Part shown: in pieces, positions 51,639-52,850 of the stretch
How the letters are laid out: every line of letters starts with the position of its first letter
Numbering within the stretch: position 1 is the stretch's first letter
Source: a virus
Lineage: Duplodnaviria; Heunggongvirae; Uroviricota; Caudoviricetes
Length of the DNA: 64,000 bases
Reading direction: 5' to 3' (one strand)
IMG/VR virus record: IMGVR_UViG_2654587772_000002
Made by a program: the position numbers and the translations under genes
Notes under the pieces: generated by a model
The model's database searches: none
Seen by the model: only the letters and a program-made list of their open reading frames with translations
What the model was told of the DNA's origin: nothing

Positions 51639-51996
51639 TGAAACCTCGTAGAATCTGGTGTGTTAACCGATTCTACGAGTAGTCATTTGTTCATCGTGTA
51701 ACAATATTGCCATTGGATAAAATAACTACAGCGCCCACAAACGGGCGCATTCTGTACATGACTTGAGATATATTATGTTGCATTAAAGCTTTTCAAATGA
51801 TAATCAGCCAAGCCTTTCGCAATTATCGGCATAGTATTTTGTTGCATTTACTATTATTGACTCATAATACGATTTGCATTCTTTCTTCCATGGAGTGCAC
51901 GAATTTATTTTTTCCATATCGTTTTTATTTTTAGAAATACCAACAAGCATAATGTACCCGATAAATCTTGTTGTCAACGCGCCAATCGGTAGCGTT

Positions 51997-52284
51997 CTAT
52001 TCTCGGCTACTGTCTTTTATTAAATTATCTTTATATTGAGGAATGAAATAGTTACCAACATATTCCAGATTTGCTTCAATAGGATTAAGATAGAATGAGC
52101 AATACTGAAAAGTGGGAATTTGTCTAAATTTAACACCAGAACATAATGAATAAATTTCTTGTTCTTTTGTTAGTTCTTTTACTATGTGACTGTTGTCAGT
52201 CGTATCTTCTAATCTTATATAGTTCAAAGACGATTTTGCTTGTCCTGGGCTTACAAGCTCAATAACAGGATGCCCATTAGACAA
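51997..52284 (-). CDS. Hypothetical protein (95 aa) in AT-rich island
   Basis: ORF only. Confidence 0.3.
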   Translation of the reverse strand: MSNGHPVIELVSPGQAKSSLNYIRLEDTTDNSHIVKELTKEQEIYSLCSGVKFRQIPTFQYCSFYLNPIEANLEYVGNYFIPQYKDNLIKDSSRE

Positions 52285-52334
52285 TGTTATTCTTTCGATC
52301 TTACCCCGAATTCTAGAAGTTTGACTCCATTCAT

Positions 52335-52568
52335 CTAGGCTGCTATTTCATTTTTCTTGAATGAATCAACAATATCTGATGGCAAGCTAAAAACAGTAGC
52401 TTTCGTATTCATAGTATATGCAAGCGAAGCAGATACCATATAGTTTCTGACTAAATTATAGTCCTTCTCGGAAACAGAATACTCATTAGGAATAGCTATT
52501 GAATTTGCAAATGAATAGCTGCTAACAAAAGCAAACGGCAACAATAGTTTAAACATTAATTTTTTCAC
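52335..52568 (-). CDS. Hypothetical small secreted protein (77 aa) with N-terminal signal peptide
   Basis: MKKLMFKLLLPFAFVSSYSFA signal-like N-terminus. Confidence 0.4.
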   Translation of the reverse strand: MKKLMFKLLLPFAFVSSYSFANSIAIPNEYSVSEKDYNLVRNYMVSASLAYTMNTKATVFSLPSDIVDSFKKNEIAA

Positions 52569-52597
52569 TTATCACTATCCTTCGAATATCTTTACAT

Positions 52598-52783
52598 TTA
52601 AAGCCCGTCTTTGCAGAGACTAGTTGCTGTAGCGGTAAGTTGTGAAACAGGAATGTTAGGGCTGTCCCGTTTCTGAAGATACCCGGCGCTTAGTGTGGAC
52701 TGATGCTCTGCTGCGCTCGCTGGCGTACCAGCGGCAACCAGCCAGACTACTGCGGACAGAATAACAGCACATAATTTACGCAT
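52598..52783 (-). pseudogene. lom: lom fragment: first ~37 codons of a Lom/Ail-family outer membrane protein fused to unrelated AT-rich sequence
   Basis: MRKLCAVILSAV...AAEHQSTLSAGYL matches lambda Lom N-terminus, then diverges and terminates at 61 aa. Confidence 0.7.
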
Positions 52784-52850
52784 AATTACCTCTCGCTTTT
52801 CTGCAATAAAAAAGGCGTCATTTCTGACGCCCGTATTGGGGTTATAAAAT

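Follow-up and report, generated by a model that had tools for sequence, protein, structure and literature searches.

Genes and features at the boundary

The analysed window, a stretch of 64,000 nucleotides (IMG/VR record IMGVR_UViG_2654587772_000002), contains two kinds of phage DNA. Positions 1-52673 are collinear with the P1-like plasmid NZ_CP027575.1, as assessed by comparison of the whole window, and positions 52673-59499 are 99.985% identical to the chromosome of E. coli ST2747, the fetched comparison locus ending there. The features recognised on either side of the transition are the following.

46044-51061, minus strand: P1 tail module, continuing the P1 synteny (tub 50450-51061, pmgB 49554-50435, sit 46044-49472).
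51072-51638, minus strand: pmgC homologue, 188 aa, positioned as in P1.
51731-51748, minus strand: GC-rich terminator-like hairpin in the simC/pmgC interval.
51783-52568, minus strand: simC homologue, 260 aa when intact, with four indel events (tblastn of an intact relative to P1 SimC; phrog_14355; indel list).
52598-52672, minus strand: last 24 codons plus stop of a 212-aa signal-peptide gene (WP_032325264.1 family, phrog_3933; C-terminus match; phrog_3933 E 1e-86).
52672-52673, no strand: breakpoint between P1-like plasmid DNA (1-52673) and lambdoid prophage DNA (52673-64000), from the three-way alignment and BLAST coordinates.
52673-52783, minus strand: first 37 codons of lom (Ail/Lom family), signal peptide and barrel start only (PF06316 positions 1-39 of 199, E 7e-18; identity to the ST2747 prophage lom).
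52813-52832, minus strand: terminator-like hairpin with a T run after it, in the J/lom interval.
52851-56329, minus strand: tail-tip gene J of lambdoid type, interrupted to give ORFs of 721 and 462 aa (ORF list; 1-nt deletion in a C run at about 54233-54237).

The AT-rich kilobase and the sim locus

GC content falls to about 29-36% over approximately 51700-52600; the P1-like flank has 45-51% and J 45-65%. The original prediction had recorded this low GC, which was confirmed, and had read the segment as an island of cargo placed beyond the end of the P1 gene order, a reading that did not hold. In P1, c4-icd-ant is followed divergently by simA-simB-simC-pmgC-tub-pmgB-sit (P1 map; the same gene list is given in PMC10695390), and the sim region has a GC content of 33.6%, matched by 33.8% in positions 51784-52673 of the window. 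This DNA follows P1-like plasmids collinearly as far as 52673 and occupies the position of sim in P1; on these two grounds the AT-rich kilobase is the sim locus normal to a P1-like backbone and not an island or a moron. The P1 gene order, said to stop after pmgC, thus extends about 1 kb past that gene, the sim locus being in its usual place up to 52673|52672. The identical pmgC protein occurs on 14 contigs, and among the 10 matches listed these are P1-like throughout. According to an earlier description, sim is a low-GC hotspot of variation in P1-like plasmids (PMC6906374).

Two small ORFs of 95 aa (51997-52284) and 77 aa (52335-52568), both on the minus strand, are present in this kilobase. 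Positions 51784-52568 correspond to one 260-aa gene in a related plasmid, with a 212-aa gene upstream, and the 260-aa gene is intact in all eight fetched relatives that have this sim cassette. Membership of the SimC family is supported by tblastn of the intact relative against P1 SimC (35.5% identity, E 3e-39, residues 26-239) and by matches of both fragments to phrog_14355, the 77-aa ORF covering profile positions 22-79 and the 95-aa ORF positions 98-182 (E 6e-8 and 5e-13). Translation of the simC region of the window in three frames, with the frame hops, reproduces the 260-aa protein of one relative (L010) exactly. On this evidence the 77-aa and 95-aa ORFs are consecutive frameshift pieces of one 260-aa SimC homologue. 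The ORFs proposed originally do exist, but they are not separate genes, and phrog_14355 supplies the family that they had been thought to lack.

Both the 260-aa and the 212-aa products have hydrophobic N-terminal leaders, and a putative leader, VKKLMFKLLLPFAFVSSYSFA|NS, was recognised by eye at the simC start of the window. The window lacks an intact frame of some 260-264 codons beginning with a signal peptide, four indel events interrupting it. In P1, SimC is made as a signal-peptide precursor that is exported to the periplasm and processed, and it blocks superinfecting P1-type phage after adsorption. By homology, the intact 260-aa protein would have a function in superimmunity, so that the exclusion function guessed for the small proteins appears right in kind, the broken gene being a homologue of P1 SimC. 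In a CRISPRi study simA, simB and simC are listed as "superimmunity" genes and are non-essential (PMC10695390).

The locus resembles the P1 operon simA-simB-simC (P1_gp043-041) in its low GC, its SimC homology, the hydrophobic N-terminal leader, its divergence from c4-icd-ant and its place immediately upstream of pmgC-tub-pmgB-sit. The order icd/ant and then, divergently, 212-aa gene, 260-aa gene and pmgC is seen in the relatives L009-L013 and L015-L017, which places the homologue between the immI genes c4-icd-ant and pmgC, as simC is in P1; the window retains the pmgC side only. It differs from the P1 operon in that SimC identity is about 35%, a single 212-aa phrog_3933 protein replaces simA and simB, simC is frame-broken and the upstream gene is cut at the junction. 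Neither simA nor simB was found alongside, the upstream gene encoding a 212-aa protein unrelated to SimB (no similarity to P1 SimB detected by BLASTP, E 4.6). Pfam and PDB sequence searches with the 260-aa and 212-aa proteins returned no family and no solved relative.

Among plasmids that share the identical pmgC protein, alternative cassettes occur at the sim position. One consists of the 212-aa gene and the 260-aa SimC-like gene (L009-L013, L015-L017); the other combines the 212-aa gene with genes for proteins of 116 aa, 158 aa (YfjT, PF27224) and 344 aa (weak SH3_3), as in L008 (7186-9847) and L014 (214-2875). The 212-aa predicted secreted protein (phrog_3933), which is uncharacterised, is conserved across both. 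These alternative sets at the sim hotspot are consistent with cassette exchange. Several diverged icd-ant (antirepressor) modules are also present in the P1-like elements compared here; three were located in NZ_CP027575.1 (68466-69796, 40946-42201 and 87042-88378), one of which is 95% identical to the icd-ant module of the window (3756-5045).

Elsewhere in the P1-like segment, positions 8676-12045 and 13071-14948 hold cargo not shared with NZ_CP027575.1, which has a SIR2-family gene nearby. This cargo lies between an integrase-family gene at the Cre position (7087-8118) and a 2,255-aa methylase at the darB position, and encodes a DJ-1/PfpI-AraC regulator, an MBL-fold hydrolase, an EAL-domain protein and a second AraC-type regulator. 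It may be the c8-mat insertion that has been reported in pJIE250-3 and ST2747 (PMC6906374).

The four indel events that break simC were located by comparison with the closest relatives (L010, L011, L012 and L016), which have an identical pmgC protein. They lie at about 52337 (-1), 52018 (+1), 51822 (+1) and 51797-98 (+2); three are length changes in short single-base runs (TT to T, A3 to A4, T to TT) and the fourth is a 2-base insertion of AT. Positions 51600-52673 differ from these relatives by the four indel events and one substitution, with zero substitutions within simC, whereas 50000-51600 differ by eight substitutions and zero indels. All four events fall within the final 900 bp on the P1 side. 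Relative to the isogenic chromosome record CP007393.1, 1 indel was counted in 15.9 kb of the interior of the P1 part, from which simple arithmetic gives an expectation of about 0.06 indels per 890 bp, compared with four observed, an excess of about 70-fold. Since the indels come without substitutions in simC and with this excess at the end of the P1 segment, the simC frameshifts look like long-read consensus errors.

A further single-base difference in the window affects J. At 54233-54237 the window reads CCCC whereas three ST2747 copies read CCCCC; the copy in CP007394.1 shows zero substitutions anywhere relative to the window, and the two in CP007393.1 show none near the C run. The split of J is probably a consensus error rather than the mark of a dead tail gene.

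It could be argued instead that simC is a true pseudogene in the strain, whatever the nature of the junction, and that the 77-aa signal-peptide and 95-aa remnants are real and possibly expressed. Each of the four indels falls within simC and is window-specific, and sim loss is tolerated, the genes being non-essential for P1 growth (PMC10695390). Four indels with zero substitutions are, however, unlike neutral decay, and three of the four are short-run length changes in a window whose J carries a C4/C5 error. Also, indels are enriched about 70-fold at a putative contig end relative to the interior, and the gene is intact in the eight fetched relatives with this cassette. We consider a genuine pseudogene very unlikely.

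The switch at lom and its counterparts in ST2747 assemblies

The ORF that follows the AT-rich kilobase, 61 aa long and starting MRKL (52598-52783, minus strand), is chimeric. Its residues 1-39 match positions 1-39 of the 199 of Pfam Ail_Lom, and down to 52673 the lom fragment is identical to the lom of the ST2747 prophage (BLAST and alignment). Its tail is the C-terminus of the 212-aa protein (...KRDSPNIPVSQLTATATSLCKDGL*), a gene remnant that occupies the simA/simB position and is in frame with the lom fragment. What had appeared to be a diverged lom end is, by this match, P1-side sequence, namely the last 24 codons of the 212-aa gene adjoining simC. The fragment shares with lambda lom and the Ail/Lom family (PF06316) 37 codons identical to those of the ST2747 Rac-type prophage lom and a location directly downstream of J. 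A full-length Ail/Lom beta-barrel of about 199 aa was not found, only PF06316 positions 1-39 of 199 being present and P1 DNA starting at 52672; with 37 of about 199 codons left no beta-barrel is possible, and what follows in the ORF is P1-plasmid DNA with no relation to lom. A separate 171-aa Ail/Lom-family gene lies beside repL in some P1-like plasmids, that of ST2747 among them (L010 3792-4307; NZ_CP007393.1 2226454-2226969); it has no relationship to the lambdoid lom cut short at the junction.

On the minus strand the sequence at the switch reads ...GGGTATCTTCAG|AAACGGGACAG..., and in the three-way alignment the two parents overlap by at most 1 nt at 52673|52672, so that the switch is nearly blunt. 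The alignment revealed no IS element, att site, repeat or target duplication at this point, and none of the signatures of biological recombination (att core, IS ends with target duplication, shared homology) was seen at the junction. The distribution of the sequence was assessed by megablast of positions 51000-53500 against 5,426 complete E. coli genomes, which split cleanly at 52673: positions 51000-52673 match P1-like plasmids of about 96 kb at 97.7%, and 52673-53500 match, at identities reaching 100%, the J and lom genes of a lambdoid prophage in the chromosome. The segment-wise BLAST proposed with the original prediction thus separates a P1-plasmid half from a lambdoid half at 52673. The junction, described there as three-way, is two-way only, the small ORFs being P1 DNA.

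No single record carries both sides of 52673 among the 5,426 complete E. coli genomes, the PLSDB plasmids and the INPHARED phages, and IMG/VR and the JGI metagenome contigs gave 0 exact matches to the junction sequence. Exact matches are likewise absent for three ORFs, the chimeric one of 61 aa, the one of 77 aa and the truncated J of 721 aa. The P1-like segment itself was found in 551 places, 541 of them on plasmids and 10 chromosomal.

One record, the chromosome CP007393.1 of E. coli ST2747, contains the exact 1,142-aa Sit protein of the window. Comparison of the window with ST2747 assemblies revealed 0 substitutions over 8,794 + 7,137 + 6,828 bp, with 1-nt indels only; the partner over the 6,828 bp, also with 0 substitutions, is CP007394.1. 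The next-best P1-like plasmid has 98.5% identity. The ST2747 strains are a parent and derivatives from three platings, and their genomes are deposited as three records, CP007392, CP007393 and CP007394 (PMC3983296). We infer that the window comes from CP007392 or an equivalent ST2747 assembly.

In CP007393.1 the same P1-like DNA is joined to the same prophage, but elsewhere, at stf'|pmgB' and at c4 region|'J. On one side the lambdoid DNA continues through a complete-length lom, annotated as frameshifted, into stf and then switches to mid-pmgB; on the other, the P1 DNA ends in the c4 region and passes to mid-J. About 4.3 kb (J'-lom-stf') is duplicated on both flanks, and about 3.1 kb of P1 DNA, from the 212-aa gene through pmgB', is absent. 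This P1 copy carries a RepB-family replication initiator, at the P1 repA position, and parAB. In CP007394.1, lom-stf-tfa-pinR is intact. The junction of the window is thus not reproduced in isogenic or independent assemblies: the joins of CP007393.1 differ, lom is intact in CP007394.1 and no further occurrence was found.

The two joins of NZ_CP007393.1 (2134390-2139070 and 2231235-2235700; L007 and L018) flank about 92 kb of P1-like DNA in a chromosome labelled "complete". This record, which looks mis-scaffolded, has been cited as a chromosomal occurrence of a P1-like element (PMC6906374). According to the published description, the ST2747 genomes were sequenced on PacBio RS II with C2 chemistry at about 28-fold coverage (PMC3983296); HGAP yielded about 14 scaffolds per strain, which were ordered on the map of another strain into a "gapless chromosome" (PMC3983296).

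A further difference between the isogenic sequences lies within the 995-aa tail-fibre ORF (39997-42984, minus strand), where 1,587 bp (39929-41515) are missing from CP007393.1 and the gene is annotated as two partial pieces. Positions 40022-41289 are 93% identical to the N-terminal region of lambdoid stf, forming a mosaic of P1 S and lambda stf. The 1,587-bp difference could be an assembly discrepancy or could be related to the invertible C-segment.

Origin and implications of the junction

The junction is very probably an artefact of scaffolding and consensus calling, superimposed on two known and ordinary elements. An ST2747 chromosomal contig ending inside lom of the Rac-type lambdoid prophage would have been placed next to a second contig, derived from the ~96-kb P1-like plasmid prophage of the strain and starting inside the gene upstream of simC. 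Joining them end to end would produce the abrupt, near-blunt switch at 52673|52672 and, by a one-in-three chance, an in-frame chimeric ORF made of Lom 1-37 and the last 24 residues of the 212-aa protein. Long-read consensus indels left uncorrected at the P1-side contig end would split the 260-aa simC into the 77-aa and 95-aa ORFs. Underneath would lie two real elements, one the superimmunity (sim) locus of a P1-like phage-plasmid, the other a lambdoid prophage end with J and lom. The breakpoint that the original prediction placed inside lom after about 37 codons was confirmed by BLAST at 52673; as a recombination event it was not, a contig join being the most likely origin.

Concatenated contig ends are preferred over recombination because related strains show three mutually incompatible structures, with blunt joins and duplicated flanks. 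A contig join also fits the plasmid location of the segment in 541 of the 551 places and the RepB-family initiator and parAB of the isogenic copy. The blunt switch of replicon is like that of early "finished" long-read genomes with unmerged contig ends, of which CP007393.1, from the same study (PMC3983296), is an example; joins that differ between isogenic assemblies, duplicated flanks and homopolymer indels extend the likeness. Two observations speak against a join. P1-like DNA stands beside the same prophage tail end, in the same orientation, in two ST2747 assemblies, which could hint at a real association, and the lambda side is error-free up to the junction, so that just one of the two supposed contig ends looks low-quality.

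The principal alternative for the junction itself is real illegitimate recombination, in which the P1-like plasmid prophage inserted into the lambdoid prophage of the chromosome or became part of a cointegrate with it, so that lom was broken at codon 37 and the 212-aa gene close to its end. The fusion ORF is in frame on both sides, CP007393.1 too has P1-like DNA beside the same prophage, 10 of the 551 places of the P1 segment are chromosomal, and P1 S and lambdoid stf share 1.27 kb at 93% identity that could promote interaction. Yet the joins differ between isogenic assemblies, and the 4.3-kb flanking duplication and 3.1-kb loss of P1 DNA in CP007393.1 are the signature of unmerged contig ends. 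Also, CP007394.1 and the second copy in CP007393.1 have an unbroken lom, the junction lies away from the S/stf homology, and the published method concatenated scaffolds (PMC3983296). Independent occurrences are lacking in the E. coli genomes, PLSDB, INPHARED, IMG/VR and the JGI metagenomes. We therefore hold this origin to be very unlikely. If it were true, the window would represent a chromosomal P1-lambda composite formed by end-joining-like integration at the tail end of a Rac-type prophage, and would encode a secreted mini-protein, an in-frame fusion of Lom(1-37) to the C-terminal 24 aa of the 212-aa protein. Homologous recombination through P1 S and lambdoid stf (40022-41289, 93%), also considered as the origin, was rejected, as the junction is not located there and the gene order is not of Campbell type.

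The idea of a lambda-type moron, an acquired cargo island downstream of J encoding two novel small proteins, agrees with the low GC and with the terminator-like hairpin after J but is almost certainly wrong, being refuted by collinearity with P1-like plasmids to 52673, at the P1 sim position, by a GC content equal to that of P1 sim, and by the match of the ORFs to fragments of a SimC homologue. The small ORFs, taken to be in moron position, are located in P1 DNA instead: lambdoid flanks on both sides of a cargo were not seen, the segment being contiguous with P1-like DNA from 52673 to 1, and no lambdoid phage or prophage with this segment after J or lom was found in the complete E. coli genomes, PLSDB or INPHARED.

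If the junction is a contig join, a public series of "complete" E. coli chromosomes apparently contains a plasmid prophage spliced into a chromosomal prophage. Chimeric genes, small "novel" secreted proteins and a breakpoint between phages would all be spurious products of such splicing, and records of this kind can misdirect surveys of mosaic prophages or of P1-like elements in chromosomes. The biology that is left over is modest: divergent, exchangeable cassettes at the sim position of P1-like elements, which fit the AT-rich variable hotspot described for these plasmids (PMC6906374).
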